A DNA stretch of 64,000 nucleotides from an uncultured Methanobacteriaceae archaeon (lineage in GTDB: Archaea > Methanobacteriota > Methanobacteria > Methanobacteriales > Methanobacteriaceae): contig OY969914.1 in assembly GCA_963704525.1 (NCBI GenBank), positions 890,475 through 954,474 of the forward strand. The letters run 5' to 3'. The notes under the pieces were generated by a model. That model did no database searches. It was not told where the DNA came from and worked only from the letters and a program-made list of their open reading frames with translations. The position numbers and the translations under genes were made by a program. This document shows positions 56,339-64,000 of the stretch, piece by piece (position 1 is the stretch's first letter; each line of letters opens with the position of its first letter).

Positions 56339-56418
<80 letters not shown>

Positions 56419-56554: not shown

Positions 56555-57874
56555 TTGGGGGAACATTTAAAAGATTTTACAGGTGAATCTAAATTTTTAA
56601 GAATTTTATGGTGTGATAATGCCAATTTGATACGTAGTAAAGCTCTTCGTTTGAATAATGATAATATTACCCAAGCTGTGGTTGGAATATCCCGTGCTCA
56701 GCAAGCTGTGCCTGTGACCTACGATGGTATTGCACCAGACTCCAAACTAGATCCTGTTGGAGAAGTATACCTTATCGCTGACAATTCATCCATCAAGACG
56801 TTACCATACGTTCCGGGAAACAGTGTGGCCATCGGAGACATGTTTCTCAACGGTAGAGAATGGGACTGCTGTCCAAGAAACTATCTCAAGAAAATGGTTG
56901 ATCTCTTTACGGAATTTGATCTAGAAATTAAAGCTTCTTTTGAAAATGAATTTTATCTTCTTAACAAAGATCATCCCTTAGAATGTCCTGAAAATAGCGC
57001 GTTTGCATCGACCAATTCGATGAATTTGAATAATGATGTTATAATGGAAATTGTGGATAATCTTGAAGCTCAGGATCTTACTGTTGAACAGTACTACGCT
57101 GAATCTGGTCCATGTCAACATGAGATCACCGTAAGGTACGATGATGCATTGCGGGCTGCAGATAATCAGATTATTTTTAGAGAAACTGTTCGGGGTGTGG
57201 CAGTTAAACATGACAGGATTGCATCGTTTCTTCCAAAAATTTTCCCTGACCATGCTGGAAGCGGTTGTCATATTCACATGAGCCTATGGAGAAATGGCAA
57301 AAATATTCTCCACGACCCCAATGAAAGATGGGAACTTGGATTGGAAGCTAATTATTTTATTGCAGGAATACTCGAACATTTAAATTCATTGATGGCAGTG
57401 ACAACTCCCATTACAAATTCCTACAGGCGGATCCTTCCAAGTTCTTGGGCTGGAAAATGTCGATGCTGGGGTCTTGACAATAGAGAAGCCAGTTTAAGAG
57501 TTGTGAGGGAACCTGATGGGAAAATTAAACATTTCGAATTTAAAACTTCAGATGCCACATCTAACCCTTACCTCTCTCTAGGATCAATCATAAGGGCAGG
57601 GATTGATGGGTTGGATAAAAAATTAGCCCTCCCAGATCCTGTACAATCAGACCCTGCAAAAATGGGAGAAAATGAAATGAAGGCAAAAAACATTACCGAA
57701 CTTCCATCCAACCCTAATGATGCCATCGAATTCTTACAAATCGATGATGTGATAATAAATTCCATGGGCGAAGAACTTTCAAACGAATACATCGCTGTTA
57801 AAATGGAAGAATATAAAATATTAAAGGACATGACAGTCGATGAAGAAATTGAATTGCTTCTGGATAAATATTAG
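56555..57874 (+). CDS. Glutamine synthetase-family protein (FluG/NodGS-like gamma-glutamyl ligase rather than housekeeping GlnA)
   Basis: ILWCDNANLIRSK, SFENEFY, QHEI, GSGCHIHMSL, WGLDNREASLRV, EFKTSDATSNPYL; TTG start after GGTGGGG. Confidence 0.8.
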   Translation: MGEHLKDFTGESKFLRILWCDNANLIRSKALRLNNDNITQAVVGISRAQQAVPVTYDGIAPDSKLDPVGEVYLIADNSSIKTLPYVPGNSVAIGDMFLNGREWDCCPRNYLKKMVDLFTEFDLEIKASFENEFYLLNKDHPLECPENSAFASTNSMNLNNDVIMEIVDNLEAQDLTVEQYYAESGPCQHEITVRYDDALRAADNQIIFRETVRGVAVKHDRIASFLPKIFPDHAGSGCHIHMSLWRNGKNILHDPNERWELGLEANYFIAGILEHLNSLMAVTTPITNSYRRILPSSWAGKCRCWGLDNREASLRVVREPDGKIKHFEFKTSDATSNPYLSLGSIIRAGIDGLDKKLALPDPVQSDPAKMGENEMKAKNITELPSNPNDAIEFLQIDDVIINSMGEELSNEYIAVKMEEYKILKDMTVDEEIELLLDKY

Positions 57875-58247: not shown

Positions 58248-60308
58248 ATGAAATTGAGAAGTAAAACTCTTGTTTACAGCGGTGTCATAATAACACTTTT
58301 AATTTTGATTCTGCTCGTAATTTCACAACTCGCTTTCATGAGCACCTACAGCGACTATGAAAATCGTTACAGTTATCACGTGCTTAAAGATGAACTAACC
58401 CAGTTAAATCAAACCATAACAGCGATGAATGAAACTGCCAAAGATTGGTCCCAGTGGGACGATGCTTATTCTTTTGTTTCAGGAGATAATCCTCAGTTCG
58501 TAACCAACAACCTGCCCCCAAATACTTTTCAGCGCCTGAATTTGAACGTTATCATTTTCATCGACAAGAATGGAAAGATTGTTTATGGGAAAGCATACGA
58601 TACCCAAAGTAACCAGTTCGTTGGTCTACCCCAAAATTTAAGCAGCTTCAAAAATGACAGCCCACTGCTACAAACAAATAATTCTAATGGTTTGTATGGA
58701 ATCATTGATCTACCTGAAGGTCCGATGATTTTGGTGTCCAAACCCATCTTAACGAGTCATAATCAGGGACCCTCGATGGGAACCCTTATAATGGGCAGAT
58801 ACCTCTCCCAAAACCAGCTTAACAAACTTATAAATATTCCCAACAGCACCCTAACTGTTCAGAGTTACAGCACAGCTAATTCATCCATAGAATATAAAAA
58901 TGTGCTCCCATTACTGTCCAATACAACTCCATCCACCAGCAAGGTGTTGGGAAGAAATTCTATTGCAGCTTACGGACTTATTAATGATATTTACGGAAAT
59001 CCTTCAATAATTTTACGTTCTGAAATGGTCAGAACACTATACAACTCGTATCTGGGCAACGTACTCTATTTTGTGGGTGCATTGCTTCTTGTAGGAATAT
59101 TATTCGTGATCCTTATTCTCTACTTTTTAGACAAAAATGTTCTTAACCGTCTTGATAAACTCATGACAGAAATAGTTGATATAGGTAAAAAAGGAGATAT
59201 AAACAGAAGAGTCACTGTATCTGGAGATGACGAGTTGACGGACCTAGCTAGTTCGATTAACAGCAGTTTATTTTCGCTTCAAAAATCTGAGCGGGATCTT
59301 GAAATTAGTGAAAAAAAATACAGAAATATCTTTGAGAATACAGGTACTGCAATGATAATTGCTGAAGAAGATATGACCATATCCCTTGTAAACAGAACAT
59401 TTGAAAACATTTTCAATAGCAGCAAACATGATATAATTGGTAAAAATTGGATTAACATGATAGAATCGAGTTACAGAGAGAAAGTTAAGGAATATCATCG
59501 ATTTTCATCGGAAAAACCCGATTTTAAACCTCTGTTAAAAACCTATGATGTCGAAATTATAATCAACAATGAACCCCGGTACTTCTTTGCAACATTTGAT
59601 TTTATTTTAGGAACAAAGAAAAGTTTAATATCCCTTATCGATATCAGTGACAGAATAATTGCTGAAAAACTGCTTAAATCTTCACTTAAAGAGAAGGAAT
59701 TGTTACTGAGGGAAATCCACCACAGGGTTAAAAACAGTTTACAGATCATAGCCTCATTACTCACACTTCAGGCATCAGAATTTCAAGATGTAAATGTCAT
59801 TGAAAGTTACAATGAAACTGAAAATCGTATACACAGTATCGCCCTCATACATGAGAGTCTGTATAATTCCGCAGATATTTCAGAGATCAACTTCAGGGAA
59901 TATGTGGAAACCTTGATGGAAAACATAATATTTTCCTACAATGTTGATACAACCAAGATAAATATCAAACTGGAATTGGATGACTATGAACTCGGAATTG
60001 AAACATCCATACCATTGGGATTGATTATAAATGAGCTGGTTTCAAACGCATTTAAACATGCATTTAAAGATGGAAAAGGATGTATAGAACTGAAACTTTC
60101 GAAGATGGATGATGAATTCGAACTCATAATAAAGGACAACGGAATTGGATTAGCAGCCGACTTTGATATAACTGCCCAAAAATCCCTTGGATTGTTACTA
60201 GTAAATGAACTTGTTAACCAATTGGAAGGAAGTATTGAAGTCATGATTCATGAAGGTACACAATTTAAAATCAAATTCAAGGAATTGGAGTACAGAAAAA
60301 GATTGTAA
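58248..60308 (+). CDS. Sensor histidine kinase (CHASE4, HAMP, PAS, HisKA_2)
   Basis: DWSQWDDAYSFV (CHASE4), GDDELTDLASSIN (HAMP), [16 protein letters not shown]. Confidence 0.9.
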   Translation: MKLRSKTLVYSGVIITLLILILLVISQLAFMSTYSDYENRYSYHVLKDELTQLNQTITAMNETAKDWSQWDDAYSFVSGDNPQFVTNNLPPNTFQRLNLNVIIFIDKNGKIVYGKAYDTQSNQFVGLPQNLSSFKNDSPLLQTNNSNGLYGIIDLPEGPMILVSKPILTSHNQGPSMGTLIMGRYLSQNQLNKLINIPNSTLTVQSYSTANSSIEYKNVLPLLSNTTPSTSKVLGRNSIAAYGLINDIYGNPSIILRSEMVRTLYNSYLGNVLYFVGALLLVGILFVILILYFLDKNVLNRLDKLMTEIVDIGKKGDINRRVTVSGDDELTDLASSINSSLFSLQKSERDLEISEKKYRNIFENTGTAMIIAEEDMTISLVNRTFENIFNSSKHDIIGKNWINMIESSYREKVKEYHRFSSEKPDFKPLLKTYDVEIIINNEPRYFFATFDFILGTKKSLISLIDISDRIIAEKLLKSSLKEKELLLREIHHRVKNSLQIIASLLTLQASEFQDVNVIESYNETENRIHSIALIHESLYNSADISEINFREYVETLMENIIFSYNVDTTKINIKLELDDYELGIETSIPLGLIINELVSNAFKHAFKDGKGCIELKLSKMDDEFELIIKDNGIGLAADFDITAQKSLGLLLVNELVNQLEGSIEVMIHEGTQFKIKFKELEYRKRL

Positions 60309-60435: not shown

Positions 60436-60460
60436 AACTATTTATATTAAAACTTTTAAA
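60436..60460 (+). promoter_or_regulatory. TATA promoter module repeated before each unit (also 60685-60709 and 60959-60983)
   Basis: AACTAT(T/A)TATA..AAACTTTTA begins exactly 34 bp before AAGAGG in all three copies. Confidence 0.7.
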
Positions 60461-60469
60461 CTAAACCTT

Positions 60470-60602
60470 AAGAGGTAGAGGGCATGCAACAAAATAATCT
60501 CCCTTATAAAAATATACCCCCCCCAAAGTATTTTATATGGGTGACGCCTTTTAATCACGTCCACCTAAACTGATTTTTAAAGCATGCCCCTTGAAACCCC
60601 TT
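60470..60602 (+). ncRNA. Putative structured small RNA, copy 1 of 3
   Basis: Own TATA element 34 bp upstream; closing stem GGCATGC/GCATGCC; two internal hairpins; poly-C loop; T-rich tract downstream. Confidence 0.6.
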
Positions 60603-60718
60603 TTCTTTACAAAAATTCTTTTTTTATTCTTCAAAAAATATCTTAAACAAATATCATAATAAAAAAAAAGCTACAAAAATAGTAAACTATATATATTAAA
60701 ACTTTTAAATTATAGTGT

Positions 60719-60851
60719 AAGAGGTAGAGGGCATGCAACAAAAATAATTCTCCCTATAAATTTACCCCCCCCAAAAGTAATTTATATGGGTGACGCCTTT
60801 TAATCACGTCCACCTAAACTGATTTTAAATGCATGCCTGTTGAAACCCCTT
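60719..60851 (+). ncRNA. Putative structured small RNA, copy 2 of 3
   Basis: Close copy of unit 1 with the same promoter spacing; changes in the AT-rich hairpin keep pairing. Confidence 0.6.
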
Positions 60852-60992
60852 ATATATTATTTAAAACATTTAATCTTATTTTAAACTCATTAAACATTTT
60901 ATAGTAATCCTAACGCCATTTAAAACCACCATACTAATTTTAGGAATTTAAAAACAAAAACTATATATAATTAAACTTTTACACTATAATGT

Positions 60993-61122
60993 AAGAGGGC
61001 AGAAGGCATGTAAGTTACTCCCTAAATTTTGTAATACCCCCCCAATAATCGAAATTTATAACGATGAATCATTAAATCCAGTTCATCTAATCTAATTTTA
61101 TACATGCCTTCTGAACCTTCTT
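60993..61122 (+). ncRNA. Putative structured small RNA or 5' leader, copy 3 of 3 (diverged)
   Basis: CAGAAGGCATGTA/TACATGCCTTCTG perfect 13-bp stem; GATGAA/TTCATC hairpin replaces GGTG/CACC; poly-C loop kept. Confidence 0.55.
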
Positions 61123-61210
61123 TAAAAATCTAAATAAAACAGTTAAAGAAAAAATTGTGAAAAAATTATTTTTAATGTGTTTATTCACCAAATCATAAAA
61201 AGGGATTTAA

Positions 61211-62659
61211 ATGAAGAAAATATTTCAAAAGAAATGTATAAATGAAGCCCTTGAATGTGCAAATAACAGCAACTCCCTAAAAAGGTCTATTGGACCTGTA
61301 GGTTTGACTATCATGGGAGTTGGTGGAATAATAGGTGCCGGAATATTTATTGTTACAGGAGTGGCATCTGCAAGTTCTGGGCCTGCACTTATTGTGTCGT
61401 TCATAATCGCAGCAATTGCATGTACCTTCACTGCACTGTGCTATGCAGAGTTCGCATCAATGATACCAATTGCTGGAAGCGTATATACCTATACCTACAT
61501 AACCATGGGCGAAATATGGGCATGGATAATGGGTTGGATATTGATTCTACAGTATTTAATAGCATCTGCAGCAGTAGCAATAGGATGGTCATCATATGTA
61601 ATTGCATTGGTTGGCTCATTTGGAATAGTTCTACCATCAATTATAAGCGGTCCATTGGGAGTTAATGGATCCCTAATAAATCTGCCCGCAGTAATAATAA
61701 TTTTAATTTTAACAGCAGTTCTTGTACGGGGAGCAGAAGAAAGTGCAAAAGTAAACGCTCTCATAGTTTTCGTAAAGGTAGCTGTAATTCTGCTCTTTAT
61801 AACGATCGGAGTAAGCTTTATAAACCCTACAAACTACCATCCATTTACCCCATTTGGTATAACAGGAATATTTCAGGGAGCAGCCATGGTATTCTTTGCA
61901 TATCTAGGTTTCGATGCAATAGCATCTGCGGCAGAAGAAACAAAAAATCCTGGACGGACCATACCAATAGGAATAATTGGTTCGTTAATAATCAGTTCAG
62001 TATTATATATTGCAGTAGCAGCTGTAATGACTGGTATGGTGCCCTACAACCTGCTTAACACCCCATCACCCGTTTCCTATGCACTTCAACATGTAGGTGT
62101 TCAATGGGCATTTACAGTAATTACTATCGGTGCAATAGCAGGATTAACAACTGTTGTACTGGTTAACATGTTCAGCAAGGCAAGAATAGTCTTTGCAATG
62201 AGCAGGGACGGGTTGTTACCCAAAGTATTTTCAAATGTTAATGACGGATGCCAGGCTCCTGTTGCAAGCATACTGCTGGTTGGTGCAATGGCAACAGTAA
62301 TAGCTGCATTCTTTTCACTGGACAGTATTTTTGAGCTTGTTAATGTTGGTGCACTCACTGCATTCATGGTGCTGGCTATAGCTGTAATTATACTAAGACT
62401 ACAACAACCCGAACTCAAAAGATCATTTAAATGTCCATTAGTACCTGCAATACCAATATTATCGATAATTTTCAGTATAGCACTTATTTCTCAGTTAAAA
62501 GTGCACATACTCCAAATATTTGCAGTATGGCTGATTCTTGGAATTTTAATATACTTCGCATATGGTAAATACAGAGGACTGTTCAAAAAACCTATTAGTG
62601 AATCAGAACCTGATATTGAAGGATTTGAAACTCCACTTGAAATTCCTCCATCAAAATAA
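61211..62659 (+). CDS. APC-superfamily amino acid permease
   Basis: GVGGIIGAGIF, CYAEFASMIPIAGSVYTY, FFAYLGFD..AEE, SRDGLLP. Confidence 0.93.
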   Translation: MKKIFQKKCINEALECANNSNSLKRSIGPVGLTIMGVGGIIGAGIFIVTGVASASSGPALIVSFIIAAIACTFTALCYAEFASMIPIAGSVYTYTYITMGEIWAWIMGWILILQYLIASAAVAIGWSSYVIALVGSFGIVLPSIISGPLGVNGSLINLPAVIIILILTAVLVRGAEESAKVNALIVFVKVAVILLFITIGVSFINPTNYHPFTPFGITGIFQGAAMVFFAYLGFDAIASAAEETKNPGRTIPIGIIGSLIISSVLYIAVAAVMTGMVPYNLLNTPSPVSYALQHVGVQWAFTVITIGAIAGLTTVVLVNMFSKARIVFAMSRDGLLPKVFSNVNDGCQAPVASILLVGAMATVIAAFFSLDSIFELVNVGALTAFMVLAIAVIILRLQQPELKRSFKCPLVPAIPILSIIFSIALISQLKVHILQIFAVWLILGILIYFAYGKYRGLFKKPISESEPDIEGFETPLEIPPSK

Positions 62660-62726: not shown

Positions 62727-64000
62727 ATGTTTAAACGATTATTTTTAAAGAAATCTATAAACGAAATTTTATCACAGAAACCCAACCAAAGTTTAAAGAG
62801 ATCCATTGGTCCTAAAGGACTTACTCTTCTAGGTTTAGGAAGCATCATTGGTGCAGGAATATTTATTGTAACTGGAGTAGCATCTGCACAGTATTCAGGT
62901 CCAGCACTTGTAATATCATTCTTGATCTCTGCCATTGCCTGCACATTTACCGCACTCTGTTATGCAGAGTTTGCATCCATAATCCCAATATCTGGTAGTG
63001 TATACACCTACACCTACATCACAATGGGCGAGATATGTGCATGGATGATTGGTTGGGTGTTGATTTTTGAATATTTAATATCTGCATCTGCAGTTGCAGT
63101 AGGCTGGTCATCGTACATAGTGGGGCTTTTAAGTTATGGTGGATTAAATTTACCAAGCTATGTAACTGCATCCTTTGCTGCAGGAGGACTGATCAATTTA
63201 CCTGCAGTTTTTATAATTTTAATACTGACCTTCGTGCTGATTCTCGGGGCAAAGGAAAGTGCACGTGTAAATGGGGCAATTGTACTCATCAATATCGCCA
63301 TGATAATGGTCTTCGTAATATTTGGATTGAAATTCATAAATCCAGCCAACTACCATCCATTCACACCGTACGGCATCACAGGAGTATTTCAAGGAGCCGC
63401 AATGGTATTCTTCGCATATATTGGATTTGATGCCGTCTCAACAGCAGCAGAAGAGGCAGAGAACCCCCAGAAAAACCTGCCAAAGGGAATTATCGGATCA
63501 CTGATAATAAGTTCCATCCTCTACATAGTGGTGGCAGCTGTTTTAACTGGTATGGTGCCATACAAGCTCCTTAACAACGCTGCTCCAGTTACATTTGCCT
63601 TAAATTATGTTGGTCTTAATTGGGTAGCTTCAATCGTTGCGGTAGGGGCTATTTGCGGAATTACAAGCGTGCTTTTAACGAGTCTTTTTGGTCAGACAAG
63701 AATATTCTTTTCCATGAGTCGCGACGGGCTTTTACCTACAGTGTTCTCAAAGGTACATTCCAACTTCAAATCTCCGGTTACTAGTATCATACTGGTTGGC
63801 ACTGTTGCCAGTTTAATAGCTGCATTTATTCCTCTAGCTGCAATAATAGAACTGGTGAATATTGGAACACTTTCAGGGTTTATATTCCTTGCAATAGCAA
63901 TAATAATACTGAGAAAGCAGAATCCTGAAATAGAAAGAGGGTTCAAATGTCCTCTCGTGCCAATTATCCCGATTCTATCTATTATTTCCTGCATATTCCT
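62727..64000 (+). CDS. APC-superfamily amino acid permease, tandem paralog, runs off the window end
   Basis: Manual translation from ATG 62727: MFKRLFLKKSINEIL...GLGSIIGAGIF...CYAEFAS...SRDGLLP; no stop in the window. Confidence 0.9.
   Translation, partial: MFKRLFLKKSINEILSQKPNQSLKRSIGPKGLTLLGLGSIIGAGIFIVTGVASAQYSGPALVISFLISAIACTFTALCYAEFASIIPISGSVYTYTYITMGEICAWMIGWVLIFEYLISASAVAVGWSSYIVGLLSYGGLNLPSYVTASFAAGGLINLPAVFIILILTFVLILGAKESARVNGAIVLINIAMIMVFVIFGLKFINPANYHPFTPYGITGVFQGAAMVFFAYIGFDAVSTAAEEAENPQKNLPKGIIGSLIISSILYIVVAAVLTGMVPYKLLNNAAPVTFALNYVGLNWVASIVAVGAICGITSVLLTSLFGQTRIFFSMSRDGLLPTVFSKVHSNFKSPVTSIILVGTVASLIAAFIPLAAIIELVNIGTLSGFIFLAIAIIILRKQNPEIERGFKCPLVPIIPILSIISCIF

Follow-up and report, generated by a model that had tools for sequence, protein, structure and literature searches.

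Tandem kink-turn RNA units with putative individual promoters upstream of an amino-acid permease gene in a Methanobacteriaceae archaeon

A 64,000-nucleotide stretch of the genome of an uncultured Methanobacteriaceae archaeon (GenBank assembly GCA_963704525.1, contig OY969914.1, positions 890,475 to 954,474 of the forward strand; hereafter the window, in whose numbering all positions without a genome or locus label are given) contains three tandem copies of a structured RNA unit of approximately 135 nucleotides. The units are located between a histidine kinase gene (58248-60308, + strand; CHASE4-HAMP-PAS-HisKA_2-HATPase by domain search), which lies directly upstream, and a gene encoding an amino-acid permease of the APC/CAT type (PERM1, 61211-62659, + strand; 482 amino acids; Pfam AA_permease_2, 6.6e-56, and AA_permease_C), which is itself followed by a second permease paralogue (PERM2, 62727-64000, + strand) that continues past the end of the window. 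An initial annotation, made from the sequence alone, had reported that the units begin with AAGAGG at 60470, 60719 and 60993, and that each start is preceded by a common upstream module; both observations can be read directly in the sequence, where the module, AACTA..TATA..AAACTTTTA, begins at 60436, 60685 and 60959, exactly 34 base pairs upstream of AAGAGG each time. Across the three copies, units and modules together show a mean column identity of 81%, and the intervening spacers do not align, as that annotation had also noted. Units 1 and 2 (type A) are approximately 90% identical to one another and unit 3 (type B) has diverged; the genome (G000), a single contig of 2.39 Mb, contains no copies beyond these three.

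Each unit corresponds to a terminal helix (P1), an inner helix (P2) and two hairpins (P3 and P4) organized around a three-way junction. Single-sequence folds of the + strand produce a closing helix around two hairpins for every copy (z-scores of -2.9, -1.9 and -6.8 for units 1, 2 and 3, respectively), which is the general architecture initially proposed. Unit 1, a type A RNA (60470-60602, + strand; covariance-model score 132.5 bits), comprises P1 (60470-77/60595-602), P2 (60480-87/60582-89), P3 (60501-16/60528-41) with a poly-C run in its loop (60517-24), P4 (60543-46/60558-61) with its loop at 60547-57, and an invariant strand joining P4 to P2 (J4/2, 60562-81); its kink-turn, described below, is formed by GA at 60478-79 and by the bulge CUU plus GA at 60590-94. 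Unit 2, also of type A (60719-60851, + strand; 133 bits), has P1 at 60719-26/60844-51, P2 at 60729-36/60831-38, kink-turn elements at 60727-28 (GA) and 60839-43 (bulge GUU plus GA), the poly-C run at 60765-72, P4 at 60792-95/60807-10 and J4/2 at 60811-30. Unit 3, the type B RNA (60993-61123, + strand; 98 bits, and the copy with the fold z-score of -6.8), has P1 at 60993-61001/61115-23, P2 at 61004-12/61101-09, kink-turn elements at 61002-03 (GA) and 61110-14 (bulge UCU plus GA), an unpaired CUCCC at 61018-22, P3 at 61023-31/61050-58 with its poly-C run at 61037-43, and P4 at 61063-68/61082-87.

Relatives of these units were sought by BLASTN in 32 genomes of the same genus, and a covariance model constructed from 32 copies was run on 201 genomes from 27 genera of the family; a metagenome scan added nine loci. 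In a 45-copy alignment that was fitted to the covariance model, and that consequently favours the structure, 89.4% of cells form standard pairs, as compared with 35-45% when the partners are slid by one to three columns, and both these slid controls and a raw MAFFT alignment give the same helices for P2 and P4. Changes on both sides are displayed by 23 of the 30 pairs, and none of 500 column shuffles reached the observed value on any of five measures, including two that rarely give false positives. The compensatory changes first noticed among the three units, such as GGGCAUGC/GCAUGCCC versus AGGCAUGUA/UACAUGCCU and GACG/CGUC versus GAUGAA/UUCAUC, proved to be part of a larger pattern of homologues that retain their pairing as the sequence changes. 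Within P1, the alternative pairings include GGAGGG/CCCCCU, GAAGGG/CCCUUC, GGAGAC-U/A-GCUCC, GAGAGGG/CCCCUCU and GAAGGUG/UACCUUC; P4 alternates between GACG/CGUC, AUGGUC/GACCAU, AUAGUC/GACUAU and GAUGAA/UUCAUC; and P2 (8 base pairs, 98% paired) is found as GGCAUGC/GCAUGCC, GGCACGC/GCGUGCC and GGUAUGC/GCAUACC, with its sequence GGCAUGCC being almost invariant despite its helical state. Many positions use G-U pairs, which would be C-A on the opposite strand, and the + strand is therefore taken to be that of the RNA.

The joint between P1 and P2 displays the signature of a standard kink-turn in every intact copy. The internal loop between the closing helix and GGCAUGC is that signature, which the initial annotation had overlooked, reading it as part of a continuous helix in unit 3; the UCU bulge of this one unit is complementary to AGA and so allows a fully paired alternative, which the other type B copies cannot form. 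The 5' (non-bulged) strand reads N-G-A directly before P2, with the GA found in 44 of 44 copies, and on the 3' strand P2 is followed by three unpaired nucleotides and then by G-A (43 of 45). The bulge is always exactly three nucleotides in length, and its third position (L3) is U in 44 of 45 copies, whereas the first two (L1 and L2) are free, giving eight variants (GAU, GUU, CAU, AUU, UCU, CUU, CGU and UAU); the first of these is also the bulge of the kink-turn in the Sulfolobus l7ae leader (PMC5539422). The pair that closes P2 on the bulge (the -1 pair) covaries, being A-U in 29 copies, G-C in 7 and G-U in 6. The two copies that depart from the GA rule are the weakest in the collection, and one of them (L106:1331-1475, on metagenome contig Ga0302164_10001723) is a decayed third copy of an array, scoring 45 bits, in which the kink-turn GA has been lost and the poly-C run has been reduced to AUACCCU.

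P2 serves as the regular (C) stem of this motif and the terminal P1 as its irregular stem, so that the element shares with the standard kink-turns of archaeal C/D box small RNAs (sRNAs) and of the l7ae leader a Watson-Crick stem, a three-nucleotide bulge, tandem G.A/A.G pairs and a less regular stem. L7Ae is the universal kink-turn protein of archaea, and the kink-turn described here, as recognized in the sequence, is probably bound by it. Two further resemblances to C/D RNAs are that single-copy species carry a C-box-like CUGAUGA on the bulged strand with a D-box-like UUGA opposite, and that the kink-turn adjoins paired 5' and 3' ends. The polarity, however, is the reverse of that of a terminal C/D motif, with the D-like strand located 5', the C-like strand 3' and the regular stem P2 directed inward; approximately 100 nucleotides of three-way-junction RNA replace the guide regions, a second box pair is absent, and the sequence 5' of the D-like element is a strand of P1, paired within the RNA. 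Assignment to the box C/D sRNAs was accordingly rejected, given this reversed order, the single box pair, a length of about 135 rather than about 50-70 nucleotides, the presence in the G000 clade of UUGAAA in place of UGAUGA, and a sole C/D match in Rfam (snoU30, 18 bits, E value 2.5, against a gathering score of 45). Neither an H/ACA sRNA nor a hammerhead ribozyme provides a better description: the 3' ends (..CCCCUU, ..CCUUCUUU or ..CCUUUAACCUCCC) lack an ACA, a three-way junction takes the place of a pocket hairpin and Rfam contains no match, and the hammerhead motifs occur in the opposite order (GA(A) before the stem and CUGAUGA after it), with CUGAUGA being absent from the copies in the window.

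Several unpaired segments are conserved. The loop of P3, (GUAAUA)-C5-10-AAA, carries a run of 5-10 C in 44 of 45 copies and in both types, bearing out the conserved poly-C loop originally reported; the others are the 11-nucleotide P4 loop of type A and the J4/2 strand of approximately 20 nucleotides, which reads CCACCUAAACUUAUUUU in type A and contains an invariant U4 tract before P2. Covarying stems combined with an invariant junction and invariant loops constitute a pattern of the kind found in ligand- or protein-binding RNA domains. A CTCCCT motif had also been described as single-stranded in all three units, which holds for the type of unit 3 but not for units 1 and 2: at the base of P3 in type A, GGG/AAGG is the pairing partner of the CCC(U) in CUCCCUU (columns 40-43 with 94-97), and these pairs covary, with one fully compensated variant reading CCCGU/ACGGG. 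Several additional tertiary or alternative pairings were considered and discarded. Pseudoknots between GUAAUA of the P3 loop and UAUU of J4/2, and between the P4 loop and J2/3, are not conserved across clades, and in a possible GGU/ACC extension of P4 the 3' side is invariant and the 5' side changes without compensation.

In single-copy relatives, the first 20 nucleotides or so after P1 contain a conserved tail, UUUAACCUCCC-AAAA (for example, L030:1652-1672). It resembles the 3' strand of P1 and also the 16S anti-Shine-Dalgarno sequence. In some species only, the tail (AACCUCCC) is able to take the place of the 3' strand of P1, with one compensatory case (L031); as an alternative helix, its pairing with the 5' strand of P1 is inconsistent across species. 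The RNA of the same relatives has AGGAGG at its 5' end, with an AUG located 8-9 nucleotides later inside P2.

In agreement with the initial annotation, no conserved peptide could be identified. Open reading frames (ORFs) from the two conserved ATGs, both inside P2 strands, agree in neither length nor frame, and the UAA-rich hairpin is open in just one of the three frames; a poly-proline leader peptide translated through the poly-C run was considered and dropped. Unit 1 contains a 29-codon ORF (MQQNNLPYKNIPPPKYFIWVTPFNHVHLN, 60484-60573), starting at the internal ATG, in which that run is read as Pro-Pro-Pro; it is not conserved, the frame being open in a few relatives and closed in most.

The distribution of the family is narrow. 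BLASTN homologues, at 74-86% identity, are present in 22 of the 32 genomes of the genus, and the covariance model returned no matches in the other 26 genera of the family, so that the RNA is confined to one genus rather than spread over the Methanobacteriales. The carriers, which come from peat, soil and sludge, were identified by an exact-pattern scan as Methanobacterium and Methanobacteriaceae metagenome-assembled genomes (MAGs); among them are Methanobacterium sp. ERen5, the bog_71 MAG and numerous soil MAGs of the MFD set. Type A is found in every carrier, and its core GACGCCUUUUAAUCACGUCCACCUAAACUUAUUUU is practically invariant; type B is restricted to the subclade of the window, where it is always the last copy before the permease. 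The majority of species possess a single type A copy, and the window's subclade possesses A-B or A-A-B arrays; one locus (L094:773-914) is intermediate between the two types. The earlier proposal of a multicopy archaeal small-RNA family therefore stands in so far as the family is conserved, structured and non-coding, belongs to the + strand and carries promoters of its own; it is to be qualified in that only this subclade is multicopy. There is one RNA locus per genome, and no dispersed copies were found.

The units had initially been judged to be unlike known RNA classes. A search of the whole window against Rfam 15 at gathering thresholds returned only a tRNA elsewhere in the window, a search of the unit region at E values up to 10 returned two noise matches, and searches of four relatives at E values up to 1 returned none; full-text literature searches found no description of this RNA. 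The family is new, and its components (the archaeal promoter, the standard kink-turn, the three-way junction) are each of a known kind.

The putative promoter modules (60436-60469, 60685-60718 and 60959-60992, all + strand) have the form AACTA-T(A/T)TATAT-AAAACTTTTA. That of unit 1 consists of a transcription factor B recognition element (BRE) and TATA box, then AAAACTTTTAAA, and then the start-site region; that of unit 2 was read in the sequence and from the alignment of the units; and that of unit 3 contains ACACTATAATGT immediately ahead of the start site. Across 21 loci, the spacer that follows the kinase gene cannot be aligned until approximately 45 base pairs before P1, where a conserved stretch begins that is composed of a purine-rich BRE-like segment, TTTATATA and AAAACTTTTA(C/A)A. 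The distance from the end of the TATA box to the first base of P1 is 22-23 base pairs, which is the usual spacing of archaeal promoters, and as judged by these motifs transcription would start 1-3 nucleotides before P1. Near-identical modules precede protein genes at G000:C1:2309693 (+) and 1668041 (+), indicating that the promoter of the units is of a genuine, generic strong type. Every copy in the arrays retains its module.

Some additional features of these promoter regions were observed. At the two G000 sites, what follows the TTTATATAGTAAAACTTTTA(A/C)A module is in one case a small ORF resembling a membrane peptide and in the other a further protein gene, and one of the sites also has GTGTAAGA at its start site. 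The type B promoters of four relatives (L016, L015, L019 and L017) carry a perfect 12-base-pair palindrome, ACACTATAGTGT, directly before the start site, which could be an operator that overlaps it; unit 3 of the window has ACACTATAATGT in its place (60981-60992), and the type A promoters of distant species carry ACATTATACATTA at the same position.

The association of the RNA with the permease gene is exact. In all 21 loci examined, the kinase gene, the RNA or RNAs, PERM1 and PERM2 follow one another in that order on the same strand, with the ATG of PERM1 located 80-110 nucleotides after the last P1. PERM1 orthologues of at least 76% identity occur in exactly those genomes that bear the RNA, and the ten of the 32 genomes that lack it contain only paralogue-level matches to PERM1 or fragments of it. 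A T5-7 run or TATA-like stretch is present approximately 45 nucleotides before the ATG in nearly all of 22 loci; in the window, the linker between unit 3 and PERM1 (61124-61210, + strand), which is not conserved in sequence, has a T5 run at 61163-67, about 45 nucleotides before the ATG, and an AAGGGA Shine-Dalgarno sequence. Three relatives combine an intact, high-scoring RNA with a downstream PERM1 that frameshifts or stop codons have split (G018:C1:431152-432604, G030:C7:46596-48048 and G027:C4:792299-793717); either these are assembly errors of long-read MAGs, or the RNA has outlived its neighbouring gene.

Metatranscriptomes indicate that the locus is expressed in nature. No RNA run was found that contains the window's own sequence, which occurs only in soil DNA runs, and the evidence comes from relatives. 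In a sludge metatranscriptome (X13), the A-A-B array of a close relative of G001 is covered continuously, by unitigs extending from the 3' part of an A unit through a 155-nucleotide spacer and the next promoter into the following A unit (depth 37), from A through the spacer into B (depth 22), and, for two strains, from B through the linker into the first PERM1 codons (depths 28 and 16), with a further unitig of PERM1 at depth 35; the last 400 nucleotides of the kinase gene are covered at a depth of 3-4. Spacer depth is about equal to unit depth, and neither a drop after the units nor a rise at the permease is visible. Two peat runs (X6 and X7) that contain single-copy relatives yielded fragments extending from the 3' half of the RNA to approximately 60 nucleotides beyond P1, and a third (X8) yielded one contig from the 3' part of the RNA into the ORF; a further run (X5) is uninformative, since genes and spacer are covered uniformly.

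The interpretation to which we assign the highest weight, with a probability of about 0.42, is that the units are combined promoter-and-leader modules that act in cis on the permease gene and are probably bound by L7Ae. Each promoter would launch a transcript whose first ~135 nucleotides fold into P1, the kink-turn, P2 and the junction, the latter bearing the long A/U-rich, poly-C-capped hairpin, the short P4 and the conserved single strand of approximately 20 nucleotides. Transcription would then run on, in a large share of molecules at least, through the spacer and any further modules into the permease gene, such that the folded domain would constitute the 5' leader of the permease messenger RNA (mRNA). 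The kink-turn would be occupied by L7Ae, and the invariant junction and loops by another factor or a small ligand, and this occupancy would set the amount of full-length, translatable permease mRNA; a stable, excised ribonucleoprotein (RNP) of ~135 nucleotides might also accumulate. The fold, the kink-turn signature, the promoters called by sequence, the gene linkage and the contiguous transcript coverage were observed and support this reading; the binding of L7Ae, the regulation in cis and any ligand are inferred. Because the RNA always lies directly upstream of PERM1, and because contigs run into that gene, a leader that acts in cis is considered no less probable than a free sRNA; the two are also compatible, since a leader domain can accumulate and act in trans.

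A number of observations weigh against the cis-acting leader. All of the loci are orthologous and lie within one genus, so that the association with the permease amounts to a single evolutionary event. The stretch of 80-110 nucleotides from P1 to the ATG lacks conservation, neither an expression platform nor an alternative pairing of any consistency was found, and the T-rich or TATA-like stretch that precedes the ATG could be a separate permease promoter. Every unit of an array has its own conserved promoter, so that the upstream units are not needed for transcription of the permease, and the joining by P1 of the extreme 5' end to the 3' strand, beside the kink-turn, is an architecture of stable archaeal small RNPs. 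The RNA data themselves are assembled contigs of community samples, with flat depth, possible carry-over of DNA and no record of strand or ends, and such libraries under-sample RNAs of 135 nucleotides, so that an abundant short form would be compatible with them.

A more specific version of cis control, in which the kink-turn three-way junction would bind a small ligand (or a dedicated protein together with L7Ae) and gate read-through into the permease gene or its translation, in the manner of a riboswitch, appears unlikely on present evidence. Candidate ligands would be amino acids, polyamines or related nitrogen compounds; the permease is of the cationic-amino-acid type. The SAM-I and lysine riboswitches and T-box stem I are bacterial leader domains that contain a kink-turn, and tandem arrangements of them are known. 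The units resemble them in having several helices that covary around a junction of invariant nucleotides, a kink-turn inside the fold, a position in what would be the 5' leader of a transporter gene, and a tandem organization; they differ in being archaeal, in having a promoter for each copy, in displaying no sequence or model similarity in Rfam, and in the lack of a recognized expression platform. To our knowledge, very few structured regulatory RNAs have been described in archaea beyond C/D, H/ACA, signal recognition particle and RNase P RNAs and a handful of riboswitches. Such a sensor, if present, would join the very small number of cis-regulatory RNA classes that are native to methanogens, and no earlier one among them would have a fold that depends on an L7Ae-bound kink-turn. 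Action in cis would more generally provide a handle on how leaders in archaea exert control without terminators of the bacterial type, and action in trans would represent a clean case of an L7Ae-type RNP serving as an anti-Shine-Dalgarno regulator. In either case the family offers a fold that is compact and strongly covarying, contains a textbook kink-turn and has a constant partner gene; its range is limited to part of a single genus of methanogens from peat and soil, most of them uncultured.

The alternative that comes nearest to the cis-acting leader, and which we regard as possible if somewhat doubtful, is that the units are independent tandem sRNA genes whose products act in trans. By imitating the 16S anti-Shine-Dalgarno sequence, their C-rich segments would cover G-rich ribosome-binding sites of target mRNAs, the neighbouring permease perhaps being one of the targets. 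The exposed segments would be the poly-C loop together with the A-run on its 3' side, the CCACCU of J4/2, the CUCCC of type B and, where a species has a single copy, its AACCUCCC tail; an L7Ae-bound kink-turn together with the terminal helix would protect the ends, as in C/D box sRNAs. A conserved promoter for every unit, with a start site at the first base of P1, is what such genes would be expected to have, and the upstream A copies hold a 35-nucleotide core that is identical across species even though the promoter-bearing B unit separates them from the permease gene. The poly-C loop is conserved in both types, and in G000 168 of 936 G5+ runs are placed 3-12 nucleotides ahead of an ORF of 60 codons or more, often after U-runs that match the A-run of the loop. 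However, 12-14-nucleotide complements of the invariant J4/2 strand occur at about chance level (17 non-self matches versus approximately 10 expected), a specific conserved target was not found in this way, and the CCC(U) of CUCCCU is paired in type A. Unit 1 is followed by T4 and T7 runs, yet a T5+ run directly after P1 is absent from most copies and the T-runs are inconsistent. On this explanation, transcription into the permease would reflect leaky termination, and RNAs of 135 nucleotides would be missed by standard libraries; the transcript contigs nevertheless lack a drop after the units or a step up at the permease, and the co-occurrence with one permease orthologue is perfect. Among bacteria, AbcR1/AbcR2 and RsaE/RoxS are tandem sRNA paralogues with C-rich anti-Shine-Dalgarno motifs. 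They share with the units separate promoters, unpaired C-rich motifs complementary to ribosome-binding sites and a linkage to amino-acid transporters; homology is lacking, and the units have a larger and more conserved fold, a kink-turn, and transcripts that continue into the neighbouring gene.

That the position beside the permease is inherited synteny only, and that the RNA forms a stable kink-turn RNP with a non-regulatory function (a scaffold or decoy for L7Ae or for another RNA-binding protein, such as a poly-C/U-tract binder of the KH or Sm-like type, or a guide-like RNA), strikes us as improbable. The kink-turn signature beside paired termini, the invariant AUUUU tract before the 3' strand of P2, the poly-C loop and the near-invariance of the P2 sequence, which suggests sequence-specific recognition, are all in keeping with such a particle; but a family that occupies part of one genus, and is absent from 10 of 32 genomes, does not perform a housekeeping function, the organization of C/D or H/ACA RNAs and any match in Rfam are lacking, and the coupling to one gene is tight. 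Far less credible is an origin in which no functional RNA is involved, with the units representing a tandem DNA repeat, an element resembling a miniature inverted-repeat transposable element (MITE), a small-protein gene or a promoter array with an incidental transcript. The tandem repeat in the window, the 29-codon ORF of unit 1 and the single degenerate metagenomic copy at L106:1331-1475 could be cited in its favour, but it is contradicted by the compensatory changes in all four helices over the 45 copies. A MITE, in particular, does not agree with one locus per genome and with the absence of other copies from the 2.39-Mb genome; single-copy species are in the majority, and the frame and length of the ORF vary between copies, as does the length of the poly-C run, from 5 to 10.

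With respect to individual ribosome-binding sites, GGGGG(G) is a very common form of the Shine-Dalgarno sequence in G000, a genome of 34% GC (for example, at 629840+, 765741+, 840436+ and 14984-). The complementarity of the RNA to the ribosome-binding site of PERM1 amounts to just 4-8 base pairs of a generic Shine-Dalgarno type, and PERM1 was for that reason set aside as a specific target. The ribosome-binding site of a distant permease paralogue with 34% identity to PERM1 (G000:C1:522608, - strand) reads AAUUUAGGUGGA, a 10-base-pair complement to the invariant UCCACCUAAA of type A that does not exceed chance genome-wide.

Farther upstream in the window, beyond the kinase gene, are a gene of the glutamine-synthetase family (56555-57874; Gln-synt_C, 9.7e-93) and, before it, a tRNA gene on the minus strand (56344-56418). 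The glutamine-synthetase-family gene, together with the two CAT-type permeases, gives the neighbourhood the look of one concerned with the uptake of nitrogen, amino acids or polyamines.

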